A DNA stretch of 64,000 bases, from NCBI GenBank assembly GCA_040261535.1, contig JBDQNU010000001.1, forward strand, positions 75,109 to 139,108. The letters are read 5' to 3'. Every line of letters begins with the position of its first letter. The first letter of the stretch is position 1. This document shows, one piece after another, positions 26,092 through 56,221 of the stretch. The notes below the pieces were generated by a model. The model worked only from the letters and a program-made list of their open reading frames with translations, ran no database searches and was not told the origin of the DNA. A program made the translations under genes and the position numbers. The DNA is from Poseidonia sp. (GTDB taxonomy: Archaea > Thermoplasmatota > Poseidoniia > Poseidoniales > Poseidoniaceae).

Positions 26092-26141
26092 GATATAGCG
26101 ACCTTTTGTGGGAAAATCTGTCCACGGACCGAGGTGAAGCG

Positions 26142-27395: not shown

Positions 27396-27459
27396 GCAGC
27401 GCCCTTCGCTAACCGATGCACTCATTCGGCGCACATCGCCACCAAGTGCTCAAAACCTC

Positions 27460-36312: not shown

Positions 36313-36405
36313 GCCAAGCCGTACGCTGTCGTCATTTCAGTCGCCGAGTCCGAGAAGCGACGGGATTTTATGCGTTCAAAGTGTGGCGGGACCGTAGGTG
36401 ACACC

Positions 36406-39400: not shown

Positions 39401-42291
39401 ACATCAATCTCGTCGGCCAAATCCGACTCCAAGACCTCAGCGAAGCCCCTGACCCCAGTTCCTACTTCCTCGTGCTCGAACTCAAGCACGTCAACACCAC
39501 CGACGGTAACATCACCATCGAATGGGAAGAGGTCGCCAACCGCTCGGGCGTGATCGGTGGGGACTTCAACTGGAACATCAATCTGGGCAGCGCAGCAGGA
39601 AGCGAGACCTACCGTTTCGCCGTGCGAGGCTACGAAGGCGGCGACTTGCTCTGCCCTCCGTCGGAGTATAACCCTGACGAGACCTGTGCTATTCCGTTCG
39701 ACATCACCATCGACACCTACGAACCGAACCTTTTGGACATCCAAGTACTCAGTCCGGGAACCGATGAAAACGTGGACTCCAACTGGCGAACGTTGCTCGA
39801 CGACACTTGGGTCGTCCCTCAACAGGCGCAAAAGATCCGCATGTCAAGCCAAGACTTGCCCAGCCCTCCCGCATCGCTCGACCTTCACCTCTGGGTGGAG
39901 CATGACCACGATGCCAACAGCGACGGTCAACCCAATGCAGATGAATACATCACCATCACCATGAACGGCGATGGCGAAGCACCCACGGCAAACTATTCCG
40001 GTGAGTACAACGACTACGCCAATGAAGGATTGGAAGGCAAAGTTTCGCTATGGATTGAAGGTTACGACCTTGCAGGAAACCCCATCGACGGTGGCGGTCC
40101 AGGGTTCGCCAACGACCAAGTCACCTACGTTTCGATGTCGTCAAAATCCCCCGTCATTCGCAACTTCTTCATCGAGGACTCCAAGGGCAACGGTTTCCTG
40201 AACTCAAACGAACTTCAGTGGGACGGTACGTGGAACCAAACCATGTACGCCGGCAACACCTACCACCTCATCCTCGAGGCAAGCGACGACAACGGATGGC
40301 GTGACGTTGACTTCTTCAAGATCAACTTGGACAAAACCACCGACGCAGAAGGCGTGACTCAAGACCTGAACGTGTGGTATTTCCCTCGTAACGAAACCGC
40401 ATGGACCGACAGCCCGTATCTGGAAATCGTCTACGACGGCAACGTGGCCCCCTCCATGCTCACGATGGACAACACCGCCCTCATCGACCCCTTCGAAGCC
40501 GATTTCATCCTCAACATTCCCGTTCGCTTGAAGTGGGGCGTCGTCGGCTTGGACGGCAAGGACATCGAACCGAAACTCCAGATGCAGGACCTCGACAACC
40601 CGCTCTACACCATGCTCTCCGGCGTTCCCGGACGCTACATCCAGGACTGGCGATACAGCGATGGGATTCAACTTGATTTCCGAACGGACGAAGTGAACAA
40701 CGAAATGGTGACGCCGTACTTCGACGACCTGAGCGAGCCGTTCACGAACGACGTGCGCGAAGGCTTCGTCTACGCCGGTGACACCGTCCGATTTTCGGGT
40801 CAATTCGCCTTTAGGGAGGGTATTTTCTACAGCGTCTTCATCAACCCTGAGGTTGAATTGACGATGGAGATTACACGCCAGGATGCCGCTGAAGATTTCG
40901 GCAAAGGGTACATTTCAACCCCTGGTGAAACGGTGACGCACACTTTCACTGGCGGCGTGTTTGACATCAACATCACCGCCCCGGTGTTCACCAACGAGTA
41001 CGTCTACACCTTCCGACTGATCAACTTGCCCGATGGAGCGGAAGATTACACCTCGGCCTTCTGTGCGACTTCAACCGACTACGGCTGCCAGAGCTTTACG
41101 CTGAAGGTCGACCGCACCTCTCCGAAGGTGGTCTCCAATTCTTGGCTTGCCGAGAAAGGTGCGCTTCCTCAAGGGGATACTAACCGACCCATAGCGAACG
41201 TGCTTTCCACCGCAACCTACCACTGCGTTGACCTCCAAGTTCAAATTGAAGAAAAGGAAGCCATGTTCCCCGGTGACTTGCAGGTCAATTGGATGTTCTA
41301 CAGCAACACCGCCAACTACATGCCATGGCTTGAGTACACCAAGTACTTCGACTCTCAACCGGCTTCCCAAACCTTGACCCTGACGACCATCCCCGGTGGA
41401 TACCTTGGTTCAGCGAGCTGCGTTGACCTTTGGCCGTTGGACGACAACACCTTCGAGCCGGATCAGCAGAAGATCACCGAGGAAGTCCCAACCCTCATCT
41501 TCTGGTTGACGGGCGTCGACTCCGCAGGTTCCACCATCCCCAACGGCGGAGGCCCGCAAGAGGACGGCACCGTGTTGCCGATCTTCTCCAGCCAGGCGCA
41601 GTACAAATCCCAGTACACGTTCATTCACGAGAAAGCGACCTTCGACGTTCAGGACGTGTTGCTCAACGACGACCCTCGTGTTGGCGACTCGATGAAGATG
41701 CAAATCAAGATCAAGAACACGGGGACCATGGCCGGTGTCGCTGAACTGGTCATCAAGTCGGTGACCGACGGCGGCACGCCCGTTGTTGAGCAGACCGTGA
41801 ACAGCGCCGAGTTGAGCATTGCCGAGGTCAGCGACTGGATTGTCGTGGATCTGGAGCCCTTCGCAGAGCAGACGACGGGCATGTACTACATCATAAGCCT
41901 GAACGGTTCAAACGACGCCATTTACGACGGTTCCGATGCGCAATGGAGCGACGTGTTCAATGTCAAGGTGGCCGAGGAGGAATCCTCCTCATCGCTGCTC
42001 TTGATCGTGGTTCTCCTCGTCGTGGTCATCGGCGTTCTCGGGACCCTCGTCTTGGTTCTGGCTCGCCGTAATAGCGGCGATCTCTCGCTGCTGGACGATG
42101 AGTACGAGGATGACGATGACGGCGCTTTTGCTGACGGAGGAAAGGTGCTCGCTGAAATCCCTGCCGATGTCGACCCCGAAATGGCTCGTGCGATGAAGGA
42201 GTTCCCCCAGTGGACCCAGGAAGAGATTCAAGGGTACTTCGACCAAGGTTGGAACGTGGAATCCCTTCGAGACTGGGTCAATAACCAGTGA
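36406..42291 (+). CDS. Giant (1961-aa) secreted, C-terminally TM-anchored surface glycoprotein/adhesin candidate
   Basis: It has a signal peptide (MQNESPRKTTPIFLMMLMVLAPLAAANV), many NxS/T sequons, a jelly-roll/MAM-like segment ending GWYIDNFRLGD, and a C-terminal TM (LLLIVVLLVVVIGVLGTLVLVLA) followed by an acidic tail. The start was moved from 35899 because the upstream 169 codons overlap the thioesterase on the other strand. Confidence 0.8.
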   Translation: MQNESPRKTTPIFLMMLMVLAPLAAANVTNFSDGSASVSVEIRDGGDLQNLVDGSIDLPDGETVTSASMKVSTTMVEHGAQVRIDTDTMPRVWNPQYNNQLTNFSDQSLFQIEDGSDATPVSLAAEGYLTDFEGTDGGFIDATDPGAMPASGIGWEHGSLTSSDTPAGCKSGSECWGTNLGDTNYTDDNNGQPFTVAMFSEELFVDPLLKSKTATFDSWHNLEARDGTQQNTVRFTDCAYMEIRASPNPGFPPGAVYNPQEWDFLPIDDQASTGLSFGSNYAQGGSTINGRIGTACTKLADTDGSGTDGWGLAGSSTNPTSNPSGWTTIAVDLTDYIDQYIQIRFVMQHVATPNDPIDDNMSGWYIDNFRLGDLLPQSASMTVRGMTPSVLGGENHPNGYGILALEAETTSSATITVDVLDTSGNQVYGKDGSAMSGLRGDIIELWNIDSQQYRAVNLKFTFDSGPDRLSTPVLHGFSIGSRVGTGFNFTAFGPSTIDDGVWQTSGGGFPMIYAPEIRQTAHNPVLERSKFSYPITSIQPMIQDDCTESPSIEITPTGSNRVVNLTDGVKTSFFDEPLFGFTSVTAYQGPCNVGGIWFDLEFGHHASHMRIDVADDGDVDYGFTEPAFDMFGRQTTFVSSTVDGVNYATDSATLTLDLNGEANGGVFMLPEGAEVSSADLSFDQVSIRSNTDPTEGFELSLMAGSQSVSLGDMPNSTVLFPESLSPAMDFKAALNSLLTNPSVAGTHQDEFGRYWIKFRFMVDSPNASSGTSLNIVNLDVVYNYSTTLTSTDGLDIELNQGVALWTGGATATVPVGLYTDTGGGVLLSDLNVASSTGYSNTIAITGNPVGLYPNGDIYEIVTTHTVDSLTGTALSEAWLTFESESSYIKFSWSDFMSFTEASDEHDHVTLESTSSVSAITDGYEVTWHFRVNPTWDDTEAVRVYAGLTTANNINGLPDAVLLDPSVGNAVENDAGITMFELKNSIGVTQALTGAESGQDINLVGQIRLQDLSEAPDPSSYFLVLELKHVNTTDGNITIEWEEVANRSGVIGGDFNWNINLGSAAGSETYRFAVRGYEGGDLLCPPSEYNPDETCAIPFDITIDTYEPNLLDIQVLSPGTDENVDSNWRTLLDDTWVVPQQAQKIRMSSQDLPSPPASLDLHLWVEHDHDANSDGQPNADEYITITMNGDGEAPTANYSGEYNDYANEGLEGKVSLWIEGYDLAGNPIDGGGPGFANDQVTYVSMSSKSPVIRNFFIEDSKGNGFLNSNELQWDGTWNQTMYAGNTYHLILEASDDNGWRDVDFFKINLDKTTDAEGVTQDLNVWYFPRNETAWTDSPYLEIVYDGNVAPSMLTMDNTALIDPFEADFILNIPVRLKWGVVGLDGKDIEPKLQMQDLDNPLYTMLSGVPGRYIQDWRYSDGIQLDFRTDEVNNEMVTPYFDDLSEPFTNDVREGFVYAGDTVRFSGQFAFREGIFYSVFINPEVELTMEITRQDAAEDFGKGYISTPGETVTHTFTGGVFDINITAPVFTNEYVYTFRLINLPDGAEDYTSAFCATSTDYGCQSFTLKVDRTSPKVVSNSWLAEKGALPQGDTNRPIANVLSTATYHCVDLQVQIEEKEAMFPGDLQVNWMFYSNTANYMPWLEYTKYFDSQPASQTLTLTTIPGGYLGSASCVDLWPLDDNTFEPDQQKITEEVPTLIFWLTGVDSAGSTIPNGGGPQEDGTVLPIFSSQAQYKSQYTFIHEKATFDVQDVLLNDDPRVGDSMKMQIKIKNTGTMAGVAELVIKSVTDGGTPVVEQTVNSAELSIAEVSDWIVVDLEPFAEQTTGMYYIISLNGSNDAIYDGSDAQWSDVFNVKVAEEESSSSLLLIVVLLVVVIGVLGTLVLVLARRNSGDLSLLDDEYEDDDDGAFADGGKVLAEIPADVDPEMARAMKEFPQWTQEEIQGYFDQGWNVESLRDWVNNQ

Positions 42292-43661: not shown

Positions 43662-44540
43662 ATGGTCTACGACGGCCCCGTGCTCGACAATCATTTCCAC
43701 CTCAACCGGCGTGGGTTGTTTCTTGATGCAGCGCGTGGGTTCAAACAAGCCGGTGGGACGGACGTTGTCTTGGTGCACTGTCCGGATTTTTCAGCACCAC
43801 CAGAAACGTATGATGGGCATCGAGAGGCGTATGCGGACACCCTCGCCATGGCCCAAAGCGTCCGCACCGAAGTTGAGTTGGGCGTTCGTGTTGTTCTGGG
43901 GCCGCATCCAGCAGCCTTTGCTCACCAATTTGAGCGATGGGTGGCGGAGGAGGGTCAATCCGGTCGTGAGCGAGCCGTTCAGAATTACCGCCATTCCATT
44001 GACGCAGCGCTCCACTTTGTCCACGAAGGTCAAGCCCATGCCATCGGTGAGGTCGGTCGGCCTCACTGGCCGGTTTCCGATGAAATTTGGGATTTATCCA
44101 ACGAATTGCTCGAAGAGACCATGCACCTCGCTGCACAGGAGGGCATCCCTTTGCAACTCCACGTCGAAGGTGAATCGGCGTCCACGTATCCCGACCTCGC
44201 CCAGCGAGCGGTCCGACAAGGCATGGATTTGCTGAAACTGGTTCGTCATTACTCGCCCCCCGACGTGCGATCCGAGAACACCCACGGGTTGACGCCCAGC
44301 GTTCTTTGCGGAAAAGGAGCGATTGAGCGGTTGTTGGAAACCCACGAAGCCGCCCGCAACGGATTCTTCCTCGAGACCGACTACATGGACGACCCACGTC
44401 GTCCAGGCGCCGTTCTTGGACCGAAAACCGTGCCCAAGCGAACCCGCCAACTTCTCGAGGGAGGCATGGCCGAAGAGGTGCTTTGGCACACCCATCACGA
44501 CCTGCCGATGAAGGTCTACGGGGCTTTGGAAGACGTGTAG
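43662..44540 (+). CDS. TatD-family metal-dependent hydrolase
   Basis: Motifs DNHFHL (HxH), IGEVGRPHW and LQLHVE. ~292 aa from the Met at 43662. Confidence 0.78.
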   Translation: MVYDGPVLDNHFHLNRRGLFLDAARGFKQAGGTDVVLVHCPDFSAPPETYDGHREAYADTLAMAQSVRTEVELGVRVVLGPHPAAFAHQFERWVAEEGQSGRERAVQNYRHSIDAALHFVHEGQAHAIGEVGRPHWPVSDEIWDLSNELLEETMHLAAQEGIPLQLHVEGESASTYPDLAQRAVRQGMDLLKLVRHYSPPDVRSENTHGLTPSVLCGKGAIERLLETHEAARNGFFLETDYMDDPRRPGAVLGPKTVPKRTRQLLEGGMAEEVLWHTHHDLPMKVYGALEDV

Positions 44541-44614
44541 GAATCAACGACCGTTCGGCGCAATTCTCCCATCACATTGATGAAAGAGGATTTGCAGGCA
44601 ACGATGTGAGCGCC

Positions 44615-45697
44615 ATGCCCCGCCGAAGCCGCTGGCCGTTGCTTGTCGCGCTCTTGTTGTGCGGATTGCTCCTCCCTCTCGGAGCCGCTCAACTCCCGAC
44701 CGCACCCGGCGTTGAGATCGATTGCGAGGACAAGCAACCGGAACTCGACGTCCATCCGCTCAACGACCCGGAGGTGACCATCACCTGCACCGTGCGAAAC
44801 CCTTCTTCCTTCCAAGAATCCATCAGCGTCGAAAAAGAATGGGACGGGATGGAAGTCGACATGATGCTCGAGGAAGATACTTTTGACCTCGGTCCCGATG
44901 AAGAAGAAGACTTCACCGTCACCTTCTCAGGACAAACCCGCCTGTCCGCATCGCTTTCCTACGACTTTACTCTGGTCGCCACCGTCACCAACGTGGGGAT
45001 GCTTGATTGGCCGGAAGCCATGGCTTCCAATGCAAGCGTGAGCGGCGACCTGAACATCGCCTCCTACGGCATGGTTGAACTGGACATCTCCGACAAAAGC
45101 ACGCGAACCATGCAAGAAGACGATGAAGTCAAAATCACCTTCCAATTTCAAAACAACGGCAACGATGACGACAAGATTCGGGTGAGCATCGCCAACGCTG
45201 CAGAACTCGAAGAGGTTGGATTCTCGTTCCCCGGAGGCACGTTTGTTGCTGAAAACGTCGTTGAGGACGGAACTTCCACGGTTCGTGAATTGACCGTTCG
45301 GGCACCTTCCGATGTTCTTGTCGACGAACGCTACCAATTGGTGTTCCAAGCCCAGAGCGAAAACGACGATGAGGCACCGGTCATCGAGAGCACGGTCTCC
45401 ATTCAACTCGAGGCAGGCAAGACCGCTGGAGGCCTTGGCGGTGGCCTTGAAGAGGTGGACAAGGACACGGTCGTCCTGTACGGCAGCATCGGTGCTGCGG
45501 TCATCTTTGGCTTGGTGTTCGTTGCCGCCTTCGCACGTGCTCTTCGTCGTAGAGCCAACTCACAACCGATGTACGTCCCCCCTGTCGAGGTCCCTGACGA
45601 ACCCGAAGATGACGACCTCGACCTCTCCGAGTTGGACGATTTGTTTGCCGATGAAGAAGACGGTGACGACTTCGATTCGGTCTTTGCCGATTTGTAG
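44615..45697 (+). CDS. Secreted, C-terminally TM-anchored protein with acidic cytoplasmic tail
   Basis: It has a signal peptide (MPRRSRWPLLVALLLCGLLLPLGAAQ), a beta-rich acidic ectodomain, a TM (VVLYGSIGAAVIFGLVFVAAFA) and the tail ...PEDDDLDLSELDDLFADEEDGDDFDSVFADL. Confidence 0.7.
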   Translation: MPRRSRWPLLVALLLCGLLLPLGAAQLPTAPGVEIDCEDKQPELDVHPLNDPEVTITCTVRNPSSFQESISVEKEWDGMEVDMMLEEDTFDLGPDEEEDFTVTFSGQTRLSASLSYDFTLVATVTNVGMLDWPEAMASNASVSGDLNIASYGMVELDISDKSTRTMQEDDEVKITFQFQNNGNDDDKIRVSIANAAELEEVGFSFPGGTFVAENVVEDGTSTVRELTVRAPSDVLVDERYQLVFQAQSENDDEAPVIESTVSIQLEAGKTAGGLGGGLEEVDKDTVVLYGSIGAAVIFGLVFVAAFARALRRRANSQPMYVPPVEVPDEPEDDDLDLSELDDLFADEEDGDDFDSVFADL

Positions 45698-45782
45698 GCG
45701 GTTCACGCCACCGCCCGCCCTTGTCCGCCGCCGCTGAACTCGGCCGATGTGCCCCGATTTTAGGAGGAACACTCAAAGGCTT

Positions 45783-45820
45783 GGTGTAGCGCACTACACC
45801 TGTTCCCCAAGGGTGTTTTT
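45783..45820 (+). promoter_or_regulatory. Two mutually exclusive hairpins in the fabI leader
   Basis: Hairpin 1 is GGTGTAG-cgca-CTACACC (45783-45800). Its ACACC (45796-45800) can alternatively pair with GGTGT (45812-45816), which is followed by TTTTT immediately before the fabI ATG (45822). Confidence 0.3.
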
Positions 45821-45821
45821 C

Positions 45822-46613
45822 ATGTTGGGACTTGAAGGAAAAACAGCGTTCGTGTTTGGAGTTGCCAGTGAAGACTCCATCGCTTGGGCGATTTGCAAGC
45901 AACTTGCGGCTGCGGGCGTTACGCTCTATTTGGGCTATCAAAAGCGGTTCATGAGCCGGATTTTCCAACTCAAAGACCAGCTCCCCGCCATCGGGGGGTT
46001 CTATCCCTTGGACGTCTCCTCAGACGCCACCACCAAGGAATTCTTCACCGCTTTTGCAGCAGATCACCCCGGAAAAAAGGCAGACATCCTCATCCACGCC
46101 ATCGGTTTCGCCCCACGTTCCTGCTTTGACCGCCCCATCCTGTTCGTTGAAGACGAGGACATCAACACCGCCATGACCATCTCGGCCAACTCCTTGCAGC
46201 GCTGCCTTAAACACGCCTTGCCCTACTTGGCCGACGGCTCCTCGACCATCACCCTGACGTATGCGGCCTCCAATCGGTTCGTTCCGAGTTACGGCATCAT
46301 GTCGATGGCCAAAGCGGCCTTGGAGTGCTGGACGCGGGAGTTGGCCTGTCATCTCGGTCCCGAGGGTCACCGCATCAACGCCATCTCCTCCGGGCCCATC
46401 CGAACCATCGCTGCGAGCGGTATACCCGGTTTTGACCGAATTCTCGACCACGTGGAAGCCAACGCTCCGCTACGGCGCAACGTGAGCCAAGACGATGTCG
46501 CCGGAGCAACGCTGTGGCTCGCCAGTCCGCTCGCAGGTGGAGTGACGGGCCAGTGCATCTACGTCGATGCGGGCTATTCGATCACGATGGTGCCGGAGAG
46601 CATCATGAACTGA
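45822..46613 (+). CDS. fabI: Enoyl-[acyl-carrier-protein] reductase, FabI (SDR) type
   Basis: GKTAFVFGVASEDSIAWAI, HAIGFAP, YGIMSMAKAALE (Y-x6-K) and INAISSGPIRTIAASGI are collinear with E. coli FabI as I recall it. Confidence 0.92.
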   Translation: MLGLEGKTAFVFGVASEDSIAWAICKQLAAAGVTLYLGYQKRFMSRIFQLKDQLPAIGGFYPLDVSSDATTKEFFTAFAADHPGKKADILIHAIGFAPRSCFDRPILFVEDEDINTAMTISANSLQRCLKHALPYLADGSSTITLTYAASNRFVPSYGIMSMAKAALECWTRELACHLGPEGHRINAISSGPIRTIAASGIPGFDRILDHVEANAPLRRNVSQDDVAGATLWLASPLAGGVTGQCIYVDAGYSITMVPESIMN

Positions 46614-46622
46614 GGTGAGAGC

Positions 46623-49600
46623 ATGGGGTTGACCACGGAAGACGGCAAACCTTGCGAGGGGATTGAACAAGGCCCGTTTGAACCCGTTGCCATCGTGGGT
46701 CTCGGGGCGCTCATGCCCGACGCTTCGGACATCGATGCCTTTTGGGACAACATCTTGAATGCGAAAATCAGCATTCGTGAATTGCCCGAAGGTCGATGGC
46801 CGGGGCCGACTGAGCATTTTTGGAAAGAAGGCGGACCGGGCGAGCACACTGAAGGGTACACCTATGCGAAAATTGGGGCGCTTGTGGAAGGTGCGGAGTT
46901 TGATTGGCGACGCTGGCGCCAACCGCCGGGGACGCTGCCCCAAATCGACCCCTGTCAACAGTGGGCCGTGACCGTCTCGGCCGACGCCATCGAGCACGCA
47001 GGATACGACGGGGAAGAGAGAGACATCGACCGAACCCGAACGGGGGTGGTTTTTGCCAACGCTCTGGGCGGTGAAAACCGAAACATGTCAAACATCCGTG
47101 TATGGTCCAACCACACCACGACCCTCGCCAAGGAGCACGGTCTGCCTGCAGACAAGGCCGATGCGTTCCAGGATGCCGTTTTGGAAGGCACGCCGAGGGT
47201 TGACGAAGACACCATGCCCGGAGAGCTGGCGAACGTGGTTTCGGGTCGCGTGGCGAATTTGCTCGATTTGCAAGGTCCCAACCACGCCATGGACGCAGCG
47301 TGTGCTTCCTCGATGGCGGCCGTCCTCGATGCCTGCCGATTGTTGCAGACGCGACAGGTCGACGTCATGCTGGCCGGTGCTGCTGACCGGACGATGGATC
47401 CGGCCACCTTTGCGAAATTTTCAGCCATCGGGGCCCTGTCACCCACGCATTCCTCCCCGTTCGATGCTCGGGCCAACGGCTTCGTCATGGGCGAAGGTGC
47501 GGGGGTTCTCGTCCTCAAGCGCTTGAGCGACGCGATTCGTTCCGGCGATGAGATCTACAGCGTGATTCGCGGCGTCGGCGGCTCTTCGGATGGCCGAGGC
47601 AAAGGCATCACGGCGCCGAGTCAACGGGGTCAAGTGCAAGCCATCGCCAGGGCGTACAGCCAAGCCGGATATGCACCGTCAAGCGTTGAATTGGTGGAAG
47701 CGCACGGGACCTCGACCAAAGTTGGAGATGCTACCGAACTTTCGACCCTCTCTCGGTTGTGGACGGGAGTCGAGGGCACCGGCAAAGTCGCCGTGGGTTC
47801 CATCAAGTCCCAGATCGGCCACCTCAAGGCCGCAGCCGGCATTGCTGGCATCATGAAATCGGTGATGGCGCTCCACCATCGAACCATTCCCCCCAGCGCC
47901 AATTTCCAGACGCCCAACCCTACCGTGGATTGGGGCGCTATCCCGTTCTTCGTTCCCACCCAGCCCTTGGACTGGCCACGTCCCGCCGACCATCCTCGCC
48001 GGGCAGGCGTTTCCGCGTTCGGCTTTGGAGGCACCAACTTCCACATCGCTTTGGAAGGATACGAGCCCGATTTCCACGCTCCTCTGGCCGCCCAGTGGGA
48101 GGGTCGATGGCAGGCGTACAGCGGACAGGGCGATGCAGCTGCACCATCCGTGTTCGATGCCTCGCTTTCGCCAACCCTCACCCATGAAGCCCTCAAAGCG
48201 ATTGAGGGCGGCGTGTTGCTGCGCTCGGCTGCCTCGGTTGAGGCTTTGAGCGCCGATCTGGCTTCGCTCAGTTTCGAAGGCCCGTTGTTTGACGACGACC
48301 CTCGCGGCTTGCGGCTCTCGCAGGCGCTTCAGGAAGCCAGCGAGGCTTACAACGTGGGCCACCCCGTACGCTTGGCTTTGGTGGCGACCTCGTGGGCCGA
48401 ATTCACAAAACGTCAGTCCTTGGCCGTCCAAGCGATGGGCGACAAGGAAAAGTGGGGCTTTTTGCAAGCCCAAGGTGTCTTGCTCACGGACGAGGCAGCG
48501 CTACCCCCCGAGGCGAAAGCCGTTCACATGTATCCCGGTCAAGGCAGCCAATACGTCGGGATGACCGCTGACCTCGTCAAGCGATTCACGGCGCCGGACG
48601 ATGTTTGGCGTCAAGCCGACGAGACGATGGTCGAGGTGCTTGACGGCGAAACCCTCTCCAGTTTTGTGCTGCGCTCGGACCTCTCCAAAGAAGAGCGTCA
48701 AGAAGCCGAGCACAAACTCAAACAAACCGAATACACCCAACCGGCCATGCTCACGGCCGATTTGGCCATTGAGCGCACCCTGAACGCCTTCGGTCACCAA
48801 CCCGATATGGTCGCAGGGCACTCCCTTGGAGAATACGCAGCGCTGATGTCATCGGGGATTTTGGATATGGACGGTGCGTTGCGAGCCGCCGCTGCGCGGG
48901 GCACCGAGATGGGCTCGGTCGTCATCGACGACAAGGGCCTCATGGCGAGCGTGACCGCACCGTACGCCGAAGTCGAAGCGGTTTTGGAGGCGACCGACGG
49001 CTACGTCATCGCCGCCAACAAGAATTCGCCAAAGATGACGGTCATCGCCGGTGAAACCGCCCCCGTTCGGGCGGCCATGGCGTCGTTTGAAGCGAAGGGT
49101 TTCTCGTGCGTTGAACTCGCTACTTCACACGCCTTCCACTCAAGAATCGTGGCTCCTGCCAACGAACCGCTGCGCCGATTTTTGGAAGGCCTGGAGATTC
49201 GCTGGCCCAGCGTCCCCATCACCGCCAACGTTGACGGGACGTTTTATCCGACGAAGGGAGAGGAAGCCAAGGCTGCCATTTTGGAAAAACTTGCACCACA
49301 GATGGCGTCCTCGGTGGAATGGACCAAGCAGATCGAGACCATGTACGGTGCCGGAGGGCGCCTTTTCGTTGAAGTCGGGCCGAAACGTGCGCTGACGATG
49401 TTTGCCATGCAGATCTTGGAAGGCAAACCGCACGTTCCCGTCATGACCAATCATCCCAAACAGGGCGGAATCGCTTCGTTTTTCACGGCCATCGGGGCCC
49501 TTGCGTTGGCCGGCCGCCCACCCGAATGGCCTGCTCTCGACTCCCCTTCCCTCCAAGACGCCTTCAAGGCCGGTCCAATCGAAGCCCAAGGGGGCGCCGG

Positions 49601-52600
49601 TTTGGTCGCTTCTTCGACCACAGCAGAACTCGAAGCACTCCGTGTGCGTGCCCGTCCGCTGCCCGGAAGCGGCTCGCCTGCGCCGTCAGTGCCTGCGAAT
49701 TCAGCCGTGATGGCACCCCCCTCCAACGACGAGGCCGCTCTTGGTCGAGCGATACGAGGCTACGTCGGTGACCGCATCGCCGCCTTTAGCGGGTATCCAG
49801 CATCGTTCTGTCACGGTCATGTGGCTCTTGTTGACGGGTTGGGTTTGACGCCTGCGCAAGTGCAACAGGTTGCCGCAACGCTCGCTTCGGAAGCGACGAC
49901 TGACCCCGAAGTCGACGGCTATGCCGCGGTGACGGCTGGCGATTTCGAACGTTGGGTTCGCCGCCCTCCTGCAACGTGGCGCCCGATGGCTTCCGTCACC
50001 GCTCCTTCGTCTCCAATGAACGTCCCCGTTCACACGGTTGGCGCGCTTCAAACCGCTTCACGCCGGGACCAAGACCCCTACGTCGTGACGGGCGTCTCGT
50101 TGGGCCTGCCGGGAATGGACCGGGTGTTTTCAGAGGATGCGTTTGAGAAGCTTGTTCGCGGCGAGACCTGCATTAGCGAAGTCTCGGATGAATACAAACA
50201 ACGCCTGCTCGACAAGAACATCGTTCGGCTGATCAAAGGACGTGACGGCTCGGTGAACATGGACCAAGCCACCGTGTTTGGCGATATCCCGCAACTTGCC
50301 GGTCTCAAAGGGGCCTTTGACCTCGCCGACGAGTTTGGCATCGACCCCAAAGCGATTGTCGCTTGGGACATCAGCACCCAACTGTCCGTGGCCGCAGGCC
50401 TCCTTGCTCTGCGTGATGCTGGTATTCCGCTCACGCCGGTGGAGCAGGTCGGAAAGGGCGGGCTGAGGCTGATTCGGAACTGGCAGGTGCCTCAAATCCA
50501 GCGAGAGCGAACGGGGATCGTCTTCTCCTCCTGTTTCCCGGGCCTCCAAATGGCCTCAAAACATGCGAAATCCAACGGGGATGACGGCGAGGGACGCTTT
50601 GACCGGCGCTACCTCTTCCAAACGCTGAACATGGGCCATTCCCAATTCGCTCAGTACACCGGTATTCGAGGCCCCAACACCACGATCAACCTCGCTTGTG
50701 CTTCGGCCACCGCCGCCTTTGGCGTCGCCGAGGATTGGCTTGATGCGGGCCGTGTCGACCGCGTGGTCATCATCAGCGGTGACGATGTGACGGGAGACGA
50801 TCTCTGGGAATGGATTGCCGGTGGCTTTGCCGCGTCGGGCGCCGCCGCGACCAACAACGTCGTTGAAGAAACCGCACTGCCCTTTGACCGTAGACGCAAC
50901 GGGCTGATTTTGGGGATGGGCGCCGCTGCGTTCGTCGTGGAACGGCATTCGGAAGCCCAGCAAAGAGGCGTCCAGCCGATCGCCGAATTCCTCGGTTCAA
51001 CCACGGCAAATTCGGCCTACCACGGCACCCGGCTTGACGTTGAACACGTCGGGCAGGTCGTGAACGAGTTCATTACGAGCATGGAGCGGCGCTGGGGCTT
51101 TGACCGGCACCAAATCGCCCCCAACACCGTGTTCTACTCCCACGAAACCTACACGCCAGCGAGAGGGGGCTCGGCCCAATCGGAAGTGCGGGCTCTGCGG
51201 GAAACCTTTGGCGACTCAACGAACAAACTGGTCATTGCCAACACGAAAGGATTCACCGGCCATCCGATGGCGGTGGGCATTGAAGACGCGAGCATGTTCT
51301 ACGGTCTCTTGACCGGTCGGCTGCCCCCCATCGCCAACCACAAGGAGAAGGACCCCGAATTGGGAGATTTGAACCTCTCCACCGGTGGCGATTATCCAAA
51401 CGTGACCTATGGGCTTCGCTTTGCAGCCGGCTTTGGGTCGCAAATAGCGCTCTCGCTGATGCGAAAATGGCCGGTGGAAGGCGACCGCATCGACGGTGGG
51501 AAGTTGCTCGCTTGGGCCCGAGGACTCGCCGGAACGGACGATGTTGTCATGCGGGTCTTGCAAAACAAACTCGTGGCCTACGTCAACGGAGACGACAATT
51601 TGCACGGCGGCGTTCAAGGCGATGCTTGGCTCCCTACCGAGGCGTGGGAAGGAAAACCCTCTGCGCAACCGGTCGTCGCCTCAACACCCGTGGCGACCGA
51701 ACCCGCGGCGCCCTCGGTGGCTGAACCACCGGCAACGCCACCCGCACCAACTCCGGCCCCTCCTGCGCCCGTTGTTGGCGATGCAGACATGATTTCAACG
51801 GTCGTGGACGTGGTGGTTCACCACACCGGTTACCCGGCAGATTTCGTTGAGCTGGACCAGGACCTTGAGGGCGAATTGGGCATCGACACGGTGAAACAAG
51901 CCGAGATCATGGCGGACATCCGGGAACGATTCTCCCTCCCTGTCGACGAAGACTTCGTTCTTGCCGATTATCCAACCCTCAACCACATGATCGGCTACAT
52001 CCAGCGCATGACCGGCGGCGAAGCCGCCCCTGTTGTGGCGCCCGTTGCCGCCGCCACGTCTCCCGTAACCCTTCCTGAGGCCACCCCGCAGCCAGCAAAC
52101 GAAAGCGCTCCATCTGCGCCCCCGGTTGAGACGGTTGACGACGCTACGATGGTTGAAACCGTTGTTTCGGTGGTCGTTCATCACACCGGTTACCCGGCCG
52201 ACTTTATCGAACTCGACCAAGACCTCGAAGGGGAATTGGGCATTGATACGGTGAAGCAAGCCGAGATCATGGCGGACATTCGGGACCGATTTTCGCTCCC
52301 GGTCGACGAAGACTTTGTCTTGGCGGACCACCCTACGCTAAACCACATGATCGGGTACATCCAACGGATGAAGGGAGGCGCCTCCAAGGCCGCTCCAAGC
52401 GTCGTTTCCCCGCCCTCCCCGTCAAATGATCAACCGATGGCTGAACCCAAATCCGCTCCGCCCGCTTCATCCCCTGCTCCGGTCGCGACGGGCGGCCACG
52501 ACGAGATTGAATCCGTGTTGGTCGAAGTGGTGGTCAACCACACGGGCTATCCTGCGGATTTCATCGAGATGGACCAGGACCTCGAGGGTGAACTTGGCAT

Positions 52601-55454
52601 TGACACGGTGAAACAAGCTGAGATCATGGGGGAGATTCGGGAACGCTTCTCCTTGCCGGTCGACGAGGACTTCGTGTTGGCCGACCATCCAACGCTCAAC
52701 CATTTCACGGCCTACATCGTGAGGATGCAAGGCGGTGATGCAGCGGCAACCCAAGCGGAATCCAACGCTGAAGCCTCACCAGCCTCAGCCCAAGCCCCAG
52801 CATCGGCGCCTGCCGAGTCGGTGGCCACGGGCACCCGTCGGTGGCAGGTTGAGGTTGAAGCCTGTCCGGGCGTGCCATCCCCGCTTTCCCTTTCGGGAAC
52901 GGTTGTGGTTTCCGATGACGGTTGGGGCATCGCCGAGGCCTTCTGTCAACGCATGGAGGCAAGAGGTTTGAAGGCCGTGCGCGTTGGTTTTGAAAGCAAA
53001 ATCAGGGACCCATCTCGGCTTGAAGAAAACGGAAGGGTGGTCCTCAGGGCCGACCCGGAACAGCCCGAGCATCTCCAATGGATCGCCAGCGAACTCAGCG
53101 AAACCGCCTTGGCGGCCTTGGTTCACATGGCGCCAATAAAACTCGCCTCTGAACAATGGGGCGAGGACACCTACCCTTCCTCGCAGGTTGCCCTTGCCGC
53201 TCACGGATGGTTTGGACTGCTCAAGGAGTTGGGCGGGCATCTTTCAACCGAAAAGCCGGGGCTTGTCGCCTCGGTCACGGCCCTTGACGGACGCCACGGA
53301 AACATCGGCGACCGGTTCAACGCCGTTCAATGCGCTGCGAGCGGCATCACGAAATCCTATGCGTTTGAGCGCCCTGATTTGCGATGCCGTGCCTTGGATT
53401 TGCATCCTGACGTGGTATTGGACGAAACGGCCGCTGCTGAAGCCATTGAGCACGACTTGTTCGGTCTCGACGGCGAGGTTGAGGTCGGTCTGGACCGTGA
53501 CGGTCGCCGATGGGCACTCGTCGCCTTTGCGGAAGACGTCGTGGACGAGGTGAAACCGCTGACAGCGGCCGATACGTGGCTCGTCTCGGGCGGAGGCTCG
53601 GGCGTGACGGCTGCGTCCATCATCGGGGTGGCGAAGGCTTCGCCGAAAGCCGGGGCGCATTTCGTCTTGCTCGGTCGTTCGGTGCTCATCGAATCAACCG
53701 AATCTTGGATTGATTGGACGGAAGCCCAATTGACCGAAGAGAAGAACGCTTTGCGACAGCGCCTCGTCGATGCGAGCGATTCAGGCAAAGTAACGATGGT
53801 GGAATGGAACAAAGCATGGCGGGCCTTCACGCGAAGTTGCGATGTTTACCGGACGCTCCACGTCATTCAGCAAACCGGAAACACCGCTGAATACCGGTCC
53901 GTGGACGTCATGGACGCCGACGGTTTGCGTGACCTTGGCTCTTCGTTGGGCCGCCCCATCACCGGGGTGGTTCACGGAGCGGGCTTGGAAGATTCCAAGT
54001 TGGTCGCTGACAAAGGCTACGACGTCTTTGATCGTGTGGTCCGCGTCAAGGTTGACGGCTGGCGTGCTTTGCTGGGAGCCGTGAACGCCTCGGGATTGGA
54101 CGTCCCTGAATTTGCGTGTTGTTTCACGAGCGTCGCTGGACGGTTCGGCAACGGTGGGCAAACCGATTATGCGGCGGCCAACTCGATTCTTGACGCTGAA
54201 ATGGCCCGTTTGACCGCGACCTCTTCAGCTCGGGGGGTCGCCATCGGTTGGACCGGCTGGCGGGACGTCGGCATGGCGACTCGTGGGTCCATCGAAGCGG
54301 TTTTCGCCGCTGCGGGCATTGAGACGTTGGCGGTGGACGACGGCGTCGCCATCTTCGTCGCCGAGGCGTTGCAGGGCGGCAAGCGACGCGTTCTGGGCTG
54401 CGGCTCGCTCGGGCTGATGGACCGATTCTCGTCTTTCCGAGAAGCCCCGGTGAAGTTGCCTGCACCGATGTCGGAGTTGATGGCGGACCCGTCCCGTTTC
54501 CCGTTCATTGACAAGATGGTTGAACTGGAAGAACACGAGCGTCTTGTCTCGCAATGCACGCTGTCCACTGAAGACCATCCGTTCCTCATCGACCACGCCA
54601 TCGAAGGCGTTCCTTACCACCCCGGCGTGATGGCGTTGGAGATGTTTGCACAAAACGCCCTGTTGTTGCGCCCCACCACTTGCCTTGCAGGGTTTGAGGA
54701 CGTGGCGTTCGGCCTCCCCGTGAAACTTCTCAAGGGACCGATAACGGTGCGTGTCGAGGCTGAGTATCTTCGTTCCAAAGACGACATGACCTGGGTGCGT
54801 TGCCGCTTGGTTTCGGATTTGACGAATTCAAAAGGCGAGCGTTTCGGTGAGCGAGAACACCACGTGGCCACGGTTCGTCTGGTCAACAAGCAGGAAGACC
54901 TTCGGCCGTTTTTGCAGCATGAAGTCGAAGCGTTGCCCACGATCGGCACGCCGCCGGGCGGTGTGTTGCTCCACGGCCCCGAGTTCATCTATTCGCGATA
55001 TTTCCACGGGCCCCGCTTCCAATCTCACGGTGGCGTGCTCGCTGGGTTTGGTGACGAGAATGCCATCGGCATCGATGGCGTGGCCCTGATGCGCCATCAA
55101 CTTCCGGCCACCGATCAGTTTGCTAACGAGCAAGCCGGCGAGACGGTGCTGCTCGAAGCCCTGCCCATGCTCATCGAAGCCGGCTTCCAAAATGCCGGTT
55201 TGGTGGCCATGGAATCGCTTGGATACAGCAGCCTTCCCGTCGGCATCGCATGGTCCACCATGCTTCGCGTTCCTGAAGCGGACGAACACCTTCGTCTCCG
55301 CAGTTTGCAAACGGCTCATCACGACGACGGCGTCACCGAGCACGATGTGTTGATCGTCGGCGAGGACGACGCGCCCGTGCTTTCCCTCAAGGGATTGAAA
55401 CTGAAGGCCATGGCCACGGTTGAAGAGGGCCAACGGTTCTCGCTCGAGCGCTGA
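46623..55454 (+). CDS. 2943-aa type-I FAS/PKS-like megasynthase: KS - AT - degenerate carrier - KS - 3x carrier - KR - DH
   Basis: It is a single uninterrupted ORF, with a 9-nt gap after fabI and a 1-nt overlap (TGATG) with the PPTase gene. Domain motifs are listed in the sub-features below. Confidence 0.95.
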   Translation: MGLTTEDGKPCEGIEQGPFEPVAIVGLGALMPDASDIDAFWDNILNAKISIRELPEGRWPGPTEHFWKEGGPGEHTEGYTYAKIGALVEGAEFDWRRWRQPPGTLPQIDPCQQWAVTVSADAIEHAGYDGEERDIDRTRTGVVFANALGGENRNMSNIRVWSNHTTTLAKEHGLPADKADAFQDAVLEGTPRVDEDTMPGELANVVSGRVANLLDLQGPNHAMDAACASSMAAVLDACRLLQTRQVDVMLAGAADRTMDPATFAKFSAIGALSPTHSSPFDARANGFVMGEGAGVLVLKRLSDAIRSGDEIYSVIRGVGGSSDGRGKGITAPSQRGQVQAIARAYSQAGYAPSSVELVEAHGTSTKVGDATELSTLSRLWTGVEGTGKVAVGSIKSQIGHLKAAAGIAGIMKSVMALHHRTIPPSANFQTPNPTVDWGAIPFFVPTQPLDWPRPADHPRRAGVSAFGFGGTNFHIALEGYEPDFHAPLAAQWEGRWQAYSGQGDAAAPSVFDASLSPTLTHEALKAIEGGVLLRSAASVEALSADLASLSFEGPLFDDDPRGLRLSQALQEASEAYNVGHPVRLALVATSWAEFTKRQSLAVQAMGDKEKWGFLQAQGVLLTDEAALPPEAKAVHMYPGQGSQYVGMTADLVKRFTAPDDVWRQADETMVEVLDGETLSSFVLRSDLSKEERQEAEHKLKQTEYTQPAMLTADLAIERTLNAFGHQPDMVAGHSLGEYAALMSSGILDMDGALRAAAARGTEMGSVVIDDKGLMASVTAPYAEVEAVLEATDGYVIAANKNSPKMTVIAGETAPVRAAMASFEAKGFSCVELATSHAFHSRIVAPANEPLRRFLEGLEIRWPSVPITANVDGTFYPTKGEEAKAAILEKLAPQMASSVEWTKQIETMYGAGGRLFVEVGPKRALTMFAMQILEGKPHVPVMTNHPKQGGIASFFTAIGALALAGRPPEWPALDSPSLQDAFKAGPIEAQGGAGLVASSTTAELEALRVRARPLPGSGSPAPSVPANSAVMAPPSNDEAALGRAIRGYVGDRIAAFSGYPASFCHGHVALVDGLGLTPAQVQQVAATLASEATTDPEVDGYAAVTAGDFERWVRRPPATWRPMASVTAPSSPMNVPVHTVGALQTASRRDQDPYVVTGVSLGLPGMDRVFSEDAFEKLVRGETCISEVSDEYKQRLLDKNIVRLIKGRDGSVNMDQATVFGDIPQLAGLKGAFDLADEFGIDPKAIVAWDISTQLSVAAGLLALRDAGIPLTPVEQVGKGGLRLIRNWQVPQIQRERTGIVFSSCFPGLQMASKHAKSNGDDGEGRFDRRYLFQTLNMGHSQFAQYTGIRGPNTTINLACASATAAFGVAEDWLDAGRVDRVVIISGDDVTGDDLWEWIAGGFAASGAAATNNVVEETALPFDRRRNGLILGMGAAAFVVERHSEAQQRGVQPIAEFLGSTTANSAYHGTRLDVEHVGQVVNEFITSMERRWGFDRHQIAPNTVFYSHETYTPARGGSAQSEVRALRETFGDSTNKLVIANTKGFTGHPMAVGIEDASMFYGLLTGRLPPIANHKEKDPELGDLNLSTGGDYPNVTYGLRFAAGFGSQIALSLMRKWPVEGDRIDGGKLLAWARGLAGTDDVVMRVLQNKLVAYVNGDDNLHGGVQGDAWLPTEAWEGKPSAQPVVASTPVATEPAAPSVAEPPATPPAPTPAPPAPVVGDADMISTVVDVVVHHTGYPADFVELDQDLEGELGIDTVKQAEIMADIRERFSLPVDEDFVLADYPTLNHMIGYIQRMTGGEAAPVVAPVAAATSPVTLPEATPQPANESAPSAPPVETVDDATMVETVVSVVVHHTGYPADFIELDQDLEGELGIDTVKQAEIMADIRDRFSLPVDEDFVLADHPTLNHMIGYIQRMKGGASKAAPSVVSPPSPSNDQPMAEPKSAPPASSPAPVATGGHDEIESVLVEVVVNHTGYPADFIEMDQDLEGELGIDTVKQAEIMGEIRERFSLPVDEDFVLADHPTLNHFTAYIVRMQGGDAAATQAESNAEASPASAQAPASAPAESVATGTRRWQVEVEACPGVPSPLSLSGTVVVSDDGWGIAEAFCQRMEARGLKAVRVGFESKIRDPSRLEENGRVVLRADPEQPEHLQWIASELSETALAALVHMAPIKLASEQWGEDTYPSSQVALAAHGWFGLLKELGGHLSTEKPGLVASVTALDGRHGNIGDRFNAVQCAASGITKSYAFERPDLRCRALDLHPDVVLDETAAAEAIEHDLFGLDGEVEVGLDRDGRRWALVAFAEDVVDEVKPLTAADTWLVSGGGSGVTAASIIGVAKASPKAGAHFVLLGRSVLIESTESWIDWTEAQLTEEKNALRQRLVDASDSGKVTMVEWNKAWRAFTRSCDVYRTLHVIQQTGNTAEYRSVDVMDADGLRDLGSSLGRPITGVVHGAGLEDSKLVADKGYDVFDRVVRVKVDGWRALLGAVNASGLDVPEFACCFTSVAGRFGNGGQTDYAAANSILDAEMARLTATSSARGVAIGWTGWRDVGMATRGSIEAVFAAAGIETLAVDDGVAIFVAEALQGGKRRVLGCGSLGLMDRFSSFREAPVKLPAPMSELMADPSRFPFIDKMVELEEHERLVSQCTLSTEDHPFLIDHAIEGVPYHPGVMALEMFAQNALLLRPTTCLAGFEDVAFGLPVKLLKGPITVRVEAEYLRSKDDMTWVRCRLVSDLTNSKGERFGEREHHVATVRLVNKQEDLRPFLQHEVEALPTIGTPPGGVLLHGPEFIYSRYFHGPRFQSHGGVLAGFGDENAIGIDGVALMRHQLPATDQFANEQAGETVLLEALPMLIEAGFQNAGLVAMESLGYSSLPVGIAWSTMLRVPEADEHLRLRSLQTAHHDDGVTEHDVLIVGEDDAPVLSLKGLKLKAMATVEEGQRFSLER
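46680..48056 (+). other. KS1 domain (PKS/PfaA-type ketosynthase)
   Basis: VAIVGLGALMPDA; active Cys227 in NHAMDAACASS (TGT at 47301-47303); EAHGTSTKVGD; SQIGHLKAAAG; GFGGTNFHIALE. Confidence 0.9.
48522..49427 (+). other. Acyltransferase domain (malonyl-type)
   Basis: YPGQGSQYVGM; GHSLGEYAA (Ser734); TSHAFHS (HAFH motif, associated with malonyl specificity in the PKS literature). Confidence 0.9.
49740..49958 (+). other. Degenerate carrier-protein-like domain (CP0)
   Basis: IRGYVGDRIAAFSGYPASFCHGHVALVDGLGLTPAQVQQVAATL is collinear with the downstream carrier domains (TGYPADF...DLEGELGIDTVKQAEIMADI). The D-T dipeptide reads L-T (Thr1076). Confidence 0.55.
50073..51467 (+). other. KS2 domain (FabF/FabB-like, catalytic triad intact)
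   Basis: PYVVTGVSLGLPG; Cys1359 in TTINLACASATAA (TGT at 50697-50699); YSHETYTPARGG (compare HGTSTPAGD); NTKGFTGHPMAVG (compare STKSMTGHLLGAAG). Confidence 0.85.
51786..52730 (+). repeat. Three tandem carrier-protein (ACP-like) domains separated by A/P-rich linkers; DNA period ~357-360 nt
   Basis: The units lie at ~51786-52013, 52146-52373 and 52503-52730. Each encodes ...VVHHTGYPADF(V/I)E(L/M)DQDLEGELGIDTVKQAEIM(A/G)(D/E)IR(E/D)RFSLPVDEDFVLAD(Y/H)PTLNH.... Thr codons ACG sit at 51888-90, 52248-50 and 52605-07, at the position of the usual DSL serine. Confidence 0.9.
53565..54302 (+). other. Ketoreductase domain
   Basis: TWLVSGGGSGVTAASIIGVA (Rossmann), VVHGAG and FTSVAGRFGNGGQTDYAAANSILD (S...YxxxN). 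A structural sub-domain precedes it from ~52845. Confidence 0.85.
54495..55451 (+). other. PKS-type dehydratase (double hotdog) domain
   Basis: HPFLIDHAIEGVPYHPG contains HxxxGxxxxP (His2658). The ~320-aa C-terminal region fits a PS-DH fold in length. Confidence 0.8.
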
Positions 55455-56221
55455 TGGTGGTGTCCATGACGGGCATGACGGAATTGAGTTCACCCGTGCC
55501 CGGCGTCCGCCTCTTTGCAAGTCCCGTGCACGCTCATGCTCTCGCCGACGTCCCGCTGGCAGACGCCGGCGAGGTGGCGACGTTTGCAACCGAGAAACGG
55601 CGCAACGAACACTTGACCGGACGGTGGTTGCTCGGCCAAGCCCTGATGGCGCACGGAGAGCGGGATTTGTCCGCCCTGGAGGTCCTGCGAAGCGAACAGC
55701 GTGCTCCGTCACTTGCCTTCATCCAAGGTGCGTGGCGTCGTACACCGTTGCCGTCCATCTCCATCGCTCACAGCGGCGGAAGGGCGGTGGTGGCGTTGGG
55801 TCCTGCTGGCCGATGCATCGGCATTGACCTCGAACCGTTGGAGCGTGCGTTGGCTCAAAACGCGTTTGATCTCATCGCCAAAGGCGAGGAACTTGAACAA
55901 CTTCGGCTGCATCCTGAACAGGCCATGCGGTTGTGGACGGGGAAGGAAGCGGTCCAGAAAGCGATGGGTTTGGGGATGCACCTCAACCCGAGGGATATTC
56001 AAATTCCAATTGATAACAATAGGAGTCAGATTCCAATTGAAAAATCAAAAATCCAATTGGAATATTGGACTGACGAGGAGTATCATTTTTCCCTCGCCTC
56101 TCGACCAAAACCAGTCCCCGAACGCACGCCCGAGGACGTGCTCTTGGACCAAACCAAGGCGGCGATGAACGCCAATCCCGATTGGGGCGTGGGTTGCAAC
56201 ACCCAACGAAACGCTCGGTAA
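55454..56221 (+). CDS. 4'-phosphopantetheinyl transferase (Sfp/EntD type)
   Basis: 255 aa. Motifs SIAHSGGRAVVAL, IGIDLEPLER (metal-binding D/E) and LWTGKEAVQKAMG (WxxKEAxxK). The start overlaps the megasynthase stop (TGATG). Confidence 0.85.
   Translation: MVVSMTGMTELSSPVPGVRLFASPVHAHALADVPLADAGEVATFATEKRRNEHLTGRWLLGQALMAHGERDLSALEVLRSEQRAPSLAFIQGAWRRTPLPSISIAHSGGRAVVALGPAGRCIGIDLEPLERALAQNAFDLIAKGEELEQLRLHPEQAMRLWTGKEAVQKAMGLGMHLNPRDIQIPIDNNRSQIPIEKSKIQLEYWTDEEYHFSLASRPKPVPERTPEDVLLDQTKAAMNANPDWGVGCNTQRNAR

Follow-up and report, generated by a model that had tools for sequence, protein, structure and literature searches.

The closest described relative of the system considered here is the Type R secondary lipid synthase, whose lone pfaA homologue has the domain order ketosynthase (KS)-MAT-chain-length factor (CLF)-acyl carrier protein (ACP, three to six copies)-ketoreductase (KR) and is accompanied by a phosphopantetheinyl transferase (PPTase) (Shulse & Allen 2011, PMC3098273). 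Its hosts were given as Koribacter, Solibacter, Elusimicrobium and Roseiflexus, with an acyl-CoA carboxylase (ACC) gene between the synthase and the PPTase in Koribacter (PMC3098273), and a literature search returned KS-acyltransferase (AT)-KS layouts only in that 2011 paper. In polyunsaturated fatty acid (PUFA) synthases, one KS acts early and a KS-CLF pair later (PMC13291983), a CLF being defined by the loss of the Cys-His-His catalytic triad (bioRxiv 10.64898/2026.05.19.726425). The synthase described below is encoded by an archaeon, in a 64,000-nucleotide stretch of Poseidonia sp. DNA (assembly GCA_040261535.1, contig JBDQNU010000001.1, positions 75,109 to 139,108 of the forward strand), hereafter “the window”, in whose coordinates all positions are given.

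By its layout, the archaeal gene appears to be a new member of this known Type R family, and that layout is not new; what is new is the archaeal host with its conserved synteny, the recognition that the second ketosynthase (KS2) has been mislabelled as a CLF, and a carrier-fold relic ahead of KS2 that appears to be a decayed ACP (ACP0). Our preferred reading, to which we give a probability of about 0.7, is that of a Type R, PfaA-like iterative synthase in an archaeon, which would run fatty-acid-synthase (FAS)-like cycles with both ketosynthases active on shared carriers and with the relic as a former ACP0. Pfam places in the megasynthase, in this order, a KS (aa 20-428) with its C-terminal extension, an AT (aa 634-946), a second ketoacyl-synt domain, three PP-binding domains, a KR and PKS_DH_N, i.e., the Type R order of KS1, AT, KS2, three carriers and KR (Pfam, NCBIfam), plus a dehydratase (DH), and a PPTase gene lies directly 3' (55454-56221). 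The best NCBIfam match is the PfaA subfamily model TIGR02813, at 862 bits and below its cut-off of 1010.1. An earlier note on this DNA, made from the letters alone, had held that the layout is not that of a standard PfaA/HglE protein, which is correct, but it is not new either, as it matches the Type R of 2011. The features are as follows:

45747..46613, plus strand: FabI-type enoyl-ACP reductase gene (Pfam adh_short_C2, 1.6e-68; NCBIfam FabI models up to 2.6e-65)
46623..55454, plus strand: megasynthase ORF, 2943 aa, KS1-AT-relic-KS2-ACPx3-KR-DH
46680..48092, plus strand: KS1 (aa 20-490), PfaA/PKS-type, Cys227/His362/His400 (Pfam ketoacyl-synt, Ketoacyl-synt_C and KAsynt_C_assoc; motif positions)
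48522..49460, plus strand: sole acyltransferase domain (aa 634-946; Pfam Acyl_transf_1, 1.4e-36; fabD model, 2.5e-57)
49740..49976, plus strand: carrier-fold relic, the putative decayed ACP0 (aa 1040-1118; hhalign, AlphaFold2 and Foldseek), conserved only in the archaeal clade
49977..50069, plus strand: disordered linker (aa 1119-1149; pLDDT < 50 at model residues 95-113; mean identity 39% among orthologues)
50070..51482, plus strand: KS2 (aa 1150-1620), divergent FabF-fold ketosynthase with the family motif HETYT
50697-50699, 51141-51143, 51246-51248 and 51261-51263, plus strand: KS2 catalytic codons Cys1359, His1507, Lys1542 and His1547, respectively
51774..52742, plus strand: three tandem carrier domains (aa 1718-2040; Pfam PP-binding x3)
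51888-51890, 52248-52250 and 52605-52607, plus strand: attachment-site Thr codons Thr1756, Thr1876 and Thr1995, respectively
53070..54302, plus strand: active-looking ketoreductase region (aa ~2150-2560; Pfam KR, 7.6e-22, aa 2407-2548), with a YAAAN motif read from the translation
54501..55412, plus strand: PKS-type dehydratase (aa 2627-2930; Pfam PKS_DH_N, 6.7e-08), with HxxxGxxxxP read from the translation as HAIEGVPYHP
55454..56221, plus strand: Sfp-type PPTase gene (Pfam ACPS and 4PPT_N; GIDLE and WTGKEA motifs)

The case for KS2 being an active enzyme starts from its motifs, all of which stand at the residues given in the earlier note, whose interval 49740-51467 corresponds to aa 1040-1615 of the ORF: NLACASATAA at aa 1356 (Cys1359), SHETYTPARGG at aa 1506 (His1507) and KGFTGHPMAVG at aa 1542 (Lys1542, His1547), with DAACASS (Cys227), EAHGTSTKVGD and SQIGHLKAAAG being the KS1 motifs. 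Pfam recognizes in KS2 the N-terminal KS model only (56.8 bits, aa ~1155-1445); a phmmer search of the PDB matches aa ~1290-1610 with FabF enzymes at E-values down to 3.9e-26, the Lys, the Cys and the two His being in register, and alignment to E. coli FabF pairs Cys1359, His1507, Lys1542, His1547 and the gating Phe with C163, H303, K335, H340 and F400. Taken together, KS2 can be aligned to solved FabF structures from end to end. In a family alignment of 44 KS2 sequences (3 archaeal, the window included, and 41 bacterial), Cys1359, His1507, His1547 and Lys1542 are all invariant (44/44), and so is HETYT, which replaces HGTST. The AlphaFold2 model of aa 1030-1640 (pLDDT 86) leads Foldseek to FabF or mitochondrial KAS enzymes in all of the top 50 PDB matches (TM 0.87-0.88, ~22% identity). 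Across 49 full-length archaeal orthologues, no other domain of the protein is as conserved as KS2 (89% mean aa identity, vs. 84% for KS1 and AT), which has a dN/dS of ~0.03, which is a rough value since dS is saturated, only the ranking of the domains being safe. KS2 being the most conserved domain rules out a pseudogene/decaying-domain reading of it, and KS2 is best described, from its sequence and predicted structure, as a strongly constrained, working-looking FabF-fold condensing domain. As its Cys-His-His triad is intact, it is not a CLF, and the earlier note's claim of a catalytically intact KS2 holds up: the catalytic residues that a proper alignment might have found missing are present and aligned to FabF structures.

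Two further claims about KS2 stand in part. The ~100-aa N-terminal elaboration that had been described is mostly an ordinary KS N-terminal subdomain, which does carry ~50 aa of insertions relative to FabF: one of ~28 aa close to aa 1188-1214, another of ~19 aa close to aa 1269-1290 and a third, short one close to aa 1310-1325. This third insertion reaches 50-60 aa in most bacterial members and aligns to FabF residues ~105-150, a span covering the FabF helix-loop-helix dimer/tunnel region (bioRxiv 10.64898/2026.05.19.726425). Likewise, the contrast drawn between a “PKS-type” KS1 and a “FAS-II-type” KS2 is right in that KS2 has its best matches in FabF, but overstated in that KS1 scores higher than KS2 against E. 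coli FabF (134 vs. 84 bits). The fabF model TIGR03150, whose cut-off is 493.75, gives 348 bits with the whole protein, the best stretch falling in KS1, and 136.8 bits with KS2 alone. KS2 is, by its sequence, a divergent KS clade, with FabF enzymes as the closest relatives of solved structure. It scores only 34 bits against KS1, and 0 bits against the second, CLF-like KS of P0151, a related synthase.

The segment ahead of KS2, in which a carrier-like relic had been proposed from SGYPASF (aa 1056) and VDGLGLTPAQVQQVAATL (aa 1070), is harder to recognize. A Pfam search of aa 960-1726 at E<=1 gave no PP-binding match in the relic, and a plain HMM of the family ACPs scores it at 1-9 bits only. Across the archaeal clade, it follows the consensus YVGDRI..SGYPA.FC.G.V.L..GLG(L/M)(S/T)...I..V...EA.TD...D...TA.D..RWV, and a comparison by hhalign of 76 relic sequences from archaea with 253 ACPs of the family yields a score of 27.7 (P 8.9e-5) over 70 columns spanning the whole domain, with 30 column shuffles reaching at most 14.7 and the reversed alignment 10.6. 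AlphaFold2 folds the relic with a pLDDT of 92-97 in context and 87 alone, and the top 50 PDB matches in Foldseek are all ACPs (TM up to 0.74), with E-values that are weak, as is usual for an 80-residue domain. Profile-profile comparison, AlphaFold2 and Foldseek thus agree on a carrier fold preceding KS2, and the similarity that might have been absent at 49740-49958 is found by both hhalign and Foldseek.

By the ungapped register, which may be off by one residue, the relic has no Ser or Thr for cofactor attachment and should be unable to act as a carrier: the attachment site falls on residue 1077, a variable D/P/E/A position, and the Asp ahead of that site is matched by residue 1076, which is S/T in 71 of the 76 orthologues and N, L or A in the other five, a pattern that fits a helix N-cap. 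With a dN/dS of ~0.10 against 0.19-0.34 in the flanking linkers (49 archaeal orthologues), the relic is a maintained fold rather than debris. In most of the bacterial relatives, this position is taken up only by a linker rich in Pro and Ala that includes a short conserved helix; in four bacterial proteins (P0044, P0064/L085, P0206 and P0244), an intact carrier with the motif LGIDTV or LGVDTV occupies exactly this place between AT and KS2. Taken together with the predicted fold, the best reading of the relic seems to be that of a decayed ACP0. A pairing by MAFFT of the relic with the bacterial post-AT “NHPK...SFNQALCGLYAAGLG” stretch was rejected as a register artefact of the sequence cut point. 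Separately, the synthase of L085, one of the intact-ACP0 loci, has a pair of genes for aromatic ammonia lyases immediately upstream (L085 3220-6341), a neighbourhood that hints at an aromatic starter unit in that lineage.

The synthase does not stand alone, as the gene order suggests a three-gene operon of a FabI-type enoyl reductase, the megasynthase and a dedicated PPTase. Synteny was read from those Poseidoniales/archaeal loci long enough to include the neighbouring genes, and the following statements apply to these loci. The FabI gene, 9 bp 5' of the megasynthase, is 81-99% identical and syntenic in the archaeal loci, and its product would supply the enoyl reduction step in trans; the PPTase gene is likewise syntenic, and its ATG overlaps the megasynthase stop codon (TGATG), so that the two are translationally coupled. 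The order TBP-TatD-orf404-FabI-synthase-PPTase is kept across archaeal loci, orf404 being a 404-aa “choice-of-anchor T” surface protein (44483-45697) that is itself syntenic between TatD and FabI. Among the best 80 loci retrieved with the KS2 region, which is 78-98% identical in them, almost all are labelled Poseidonia, Poseidoniaceae or Poseidoniales (Marine Group II), and they include the MG-II genome CM001443.1. The window itself encodes an archaeal TBP and Cdc6/Orc1, which, along with the conserved synteny in loci of Poseidoniales metagenome-assembled genomes (MAGs), rules out bacterial contamination, and by the same gene-level comparison, the synthase locus looks to be a vertically inherited core of the Poseidoniales lineage, no stray island. 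The archaeal gene also turns up, at 78-94% identity, in contigs assigned to Verrucomicrobiales, Salipiger bermudensis and Flavobacteriales (L027, L077 and protein P0003), of which L077 has the archaeal TBP-TatD synteny as well; their sequences suggest that they are most likely mis-binned Poseidoniales contigs.

Beyond the megasynthase, no further KS, AT, ACP, KR or DH similarity was found in the 64-kb window, in keeping with the earlier claim of one shared AT. The AT shows GHSLGE at aa 732 and, in the translation, HAFH, which we take to be a malonyl-specificity signature. The synthase neighbours in the window are FabI, the PPTase, TBP, TatD and surface proteins, and no adjacent tailoring genes were found among them; the megasynthase has no thioesterase (TE) domain.

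All three carriers read ...DQDLEGELGIDTVKQAEIM..., with the motif LGIDTVK, which puts a Thr at the phosphopantetheine position, where four solved ACP sequences (PigH, S. coelicolor ACP and the MupA ACPs) have the modified Ser. LGIDTV is present in every carrier found in the archaeal orthologues examined, and LG(I/V)DTVK in all 68 carriers of the first homologue set, bacteria and archaea included. An ACP1 query (window 51765-52037) against 1.84 billion representative proteins gave 4780 matches, and in the best 150 of these (P0121-P0270), the attachment column holds 382 Thr, 237 Ser, 3 other residues and 3 gaps. Almost all of these proteins have either Thr or Ser in all of their carriers, and 5 of the 150 carry a single deviant residue. 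Of 55 long proteins, 31 combine Thr carriers with a HETYT KS2 and 22 have Ser carriers and lack KS2, with a single exception in either direction (Fisher P 4e-13, the sequences not being phylogenetically independent). A strict linkage is ruled out by these two exceptions, P0140 with Thr carriers and no KS2 (NMO-KS-AT-ACP(T)5-KR-DH-PPTase) and P0216 with KS2 and Ser carriers. Ser and Thr also swap between close relatives: P0223, within the archaeal clade, has ELGVDSVKQAEIM, and P0216 and P0174 form another such pair. As the hydroxyl is what stays conserved across close Ser/Thr relatives, it can be argued that the Thr would be a functional attachment site. Ser-to-Thr mutants of ACPs are poor substrates of standard PPTases, and a literature search found no report of Thr as a phosphopantetheine site. 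As to carrier number, four orthologues (L045, L060, L069 and L075) have four tandem carriers, not three, and the four carriers of P0121 are nearly identical across the printed motif regions; the carrier count would thus seem to vary by recent tandem duplication.

The family is widespread in bacteria: homologues sharing 45-51% identity in an AT-KS2-ACP context come from Acidobacteria, Bryobacteraceae, Roseiflexaceae, Actinomycetota, Myxococcota, Gemmatimonadota and others, and those from the same phyla as the Type R hosts share both the Thr carriers and the HETYT KS2. Like Type R, the archaeal system has only one pfaA homologue, in which a second KS-like domain sits after the AT and ahead of the tandem ACPs (three to six in Type R), and a KR and then a PPTase gene follow; it differs from Type R in its archaeal host, in the folded carrier relic preceding KS2, in having no ACC gene between synthase and PPTase, and in the source of the enoyl reductase, a FabI-type gene upstream here, whereas the bacterial loci examined have acyl-CoA dehydrogenase (ACAD)/electron transfer flavoprotein (ETF) genes; the 2011 description, for its part, names the second KS “CLF” and omits the DH. 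In two bacterial loci (L081 4792-22255 and L082 5928-21678), the synthase adjoins an acyl-CoA dehydrogenase (with ETF genes in L081), a PPTase and a single-chain ACC with biotin carboxylase, biotin carboxyl carrier protein (BCCP), ACC_central and carboxyltransferase domains; in both assemblies the synthase is split into several ORFs, probably by frameshifts.

With PfaA (TIGR02813), its best NCBIfam match, the protein shares the KS-AT-tandem ACP-KR-DH backbone and differs in its sub-cut-off score, in the extra KS2 after the AT and in carriers with Thr, not Ser; the pfaB, pfaC (KS-CLF-DH2) and pfaD partners of PUFA synthases are absent from the 64-kb window. The KS-CLF of PfaC/HglC and the KS/CLF of type II PKS are alike in having two KS-fold domains in one synthase, which may divide the elongation cycles, whereas the archaeal KS2 has kept all of its catalytic residues, has the AT between itself and KS1, and shows no sequence similarity (0 bits) to the CLF-like domain of P0151. 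FabF (KAS II) is the best structural and sequence match of KS2, which has the thiolase-fold KS signature of Cys-His-His-Lys but is embedded in a megasynthase, carries ~50 aa of insertions and HETYT in place of HGTST, and stays below the TIGR03150 equivalog score. The anammox amxFabF2/amxFabFmut heterodimer (PDB 9s5h, chain B of which gives 85 bits against KS2) also pairs FabF-like domains in a specialised lipid pathway, but its proteins are free-standing and one partner has no triad (bioRxiv 10.64898/2026.05.19.726425).

According to the proposed mechanism, the synthase would run iterative, FAS-like cycles on the three downstream carriers, in which condensation, KR and DH steps would be followed by FabI acting in trans. 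As ACP0 is dead in the archaeal protein and absent in most relatives, both ketosynthases would have to use the same downstream tandem carriers, and KS1 and KS2 might divide the cycles by chain length, or as priming vs. elongation. KS2 could thereby take the role of the separate PfaC KS-CLF pair of canonical PUFA synthases, no such pair being present in the window, and the former ACP0 would be retained as a structural or docking element. The product would probably be a saturated or mono-functionalised fatty acyl chain; as the synthase has no TE domain, its release would fall to an enzyme whose gene lies elsewhere.

In a first rival explanation, KS2 would be a CLF-like partner of KS1 in a heterodimer, shaping the tunnel or decarboxylating malonyl-ACP for priming instead of condensing; “CLF” is, after all, what Shulse & Allen call the domain at this position (PMC3098273), FabF-like pairs can form KS/CLF heterodimers (PDB 9s5h, bioRxiv 10.64898/2026.05.19.726425), 9s5h_B is among the best PDB sequence matches of KS2, and KS2 has insertions in the region aligned to the FabF helix-loop-helix dimer/tunnel region. 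What defines CLFs is triad loss, though, and a domain that keeps its Cys, His, His and Lys in all 44 sequences, is the most conserved in its protein and does not score at all against the CLF-like second KS of P0151 is quite unlikely to be one. A literal two-module line, in which KS1-AT-CP0 builds a starter on CP0 for KS2 and KS2 alone iterates with CP1-3, KR and DH, draws on the relatives with an intact Thr-type ACP0 between AT and KS2, on the relic being folded and constrained, and on the Ser/Thr at position 1076 in most orthologues. It appears very unlikely, as the ungapped register puts position 1076 on the Asp and the variable 1077 on the attachment site, position 1076 is N, L or A in five orthologues, the relic goes undetected by Pfam PP-binding, and most bacterial members have no domain at all there. 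The KS1-AT-CP0/KS2-CP3-KR-DH design of the earlier note is, accordingly, plausible as ancestry, given the intact ACP0 of four bacterial relatives, and fails as a functioning two-module line, given the variable attachment position and the many bacterial members with a linker only.

The third alternative gives up fatty-acid synthesis altogether: the product would be a specialised secondary lipid (polyene, hydroxy- or branched-chain), FabI an unrelated housekeeping gene and KS2 the catalyst of a non-iterative step, e.g., a head-to-head Claisen one. The family is indeed classed as a “secondary lipid” synthase (PMC3098273), and the bacterial relatives adjoin single-chain acyl-CoA carboxylase and acyl-CoA dehydrogenase/ETF genes and, in one case, aromatic ammonia lyases, contexts that are compatible with unusual extender or starter units. 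In the archaeal loci, the conserved FabI gene 9 bp upstream, an AT that has the HAFH motif and matches FabD, and the lack of adjacent tailoring genes all speak for fatty acids, which makes this alternative doubtful. The reading of an iterative synthase with two active ketosynthases and a former ACP0 has its own difficulties. One of its supports, the clade that the KS2 domains of the four relatives with an intact ACP0 (P0044, P0064, P0206 and P0244) form next to the archaeal KS2, comes from a neighbour-joining tree without bootstrap; the three tandem carriers lack the attachment Ser by which PF00550 is defined, normal phosphopantetheinylation being assumed; and the comparison with Type R draws on relatives from the same taxa as the five named genomes (Roseiflexaceae, Bryobacteraceae and Acidobacteria). 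Besides the saturated dS already mentioned, it also weighs against this reading that it relies on sequence and predicted structures for the whole family; either ketosynthase might be the one that primes or the one that elongates, and each might pair with itself or KS1 with KS2.

Several other genes of the window merit a mention. At 26106-28518, a cytochrome-P450-reductase-like flavoprotein (FAD_binding_1 and NAD_binding_1) overlaps a fatty-acid hydroxylase family gene whose best NCBIfam match is the ornithine-lipid hydroxylase OlsE, below cut-off, and the two would be a further case of lipid-modifying genes of bacterial style in an archaeon. Some 14 kb upstream of the synthase lies a biotin carboxylase gene that stands alone (30890-32230) and is a possible source of malonyl-CoA; no carboxyltransferase domain was present in the scanned ORFs adjoining it, and no BCCP was found. 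The window also encodes a 726-aa protein with collagen triple-helix repeats and DUF7151 (28586-30766), unusual for an archaeon, and a 2130-aa ORF without any Pfam match (35899-42291).

Archaea are, to our knowledge, the textbook organisms without ACP-dependent fatty-acid synthesis, and Marine Group II is among the most abundant planktonic archaea. A literature search found no paper reporting this synthase, or polyketide/fatty-acid synthases in general, in Marine Group II/Poseidoniales, and two pangenome studies of the group mention neither polyketide synthases nor acyl carrier proteins. None of 270 Poseidoniales MAGs yielded the enzyme responsible for the glycerol-phosphate backbone of archaea (Rinke 2019, PMC6461757). 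It is possible, if tentative, that the family carries phosphopantetheine on Thr, that a divergent dedicated PPTase installs it and that the HETYT KS2 has co-evolved with it, the Poseidoniaceae enzyme being a complete ACP-dependent de novo FAS from which Marine Group II would obtain acyl chains for the “mixed”, glycerol-3-phosphate-based membranes proposed from genomes. The value of the locus therefore seems to lie in its archaeal host, in the corrected role of KS2 and in the threonine carriers, with the earlier interpretation being half right and so partly supported. For enzymology, the “CLF” label would be corrected to that of an active KS, and a widespread two-KS, one-AT iterative design defined; if the carrier Thr is modified, the known scope of PPTases would be extended and an orthogonal carrier/PPTase pair offered. 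For the uncultured cells themselves, a conserved, constrained operon with all six FAS activities and its own PPTase is a concrete, clonable candidate for fatty-acid production.

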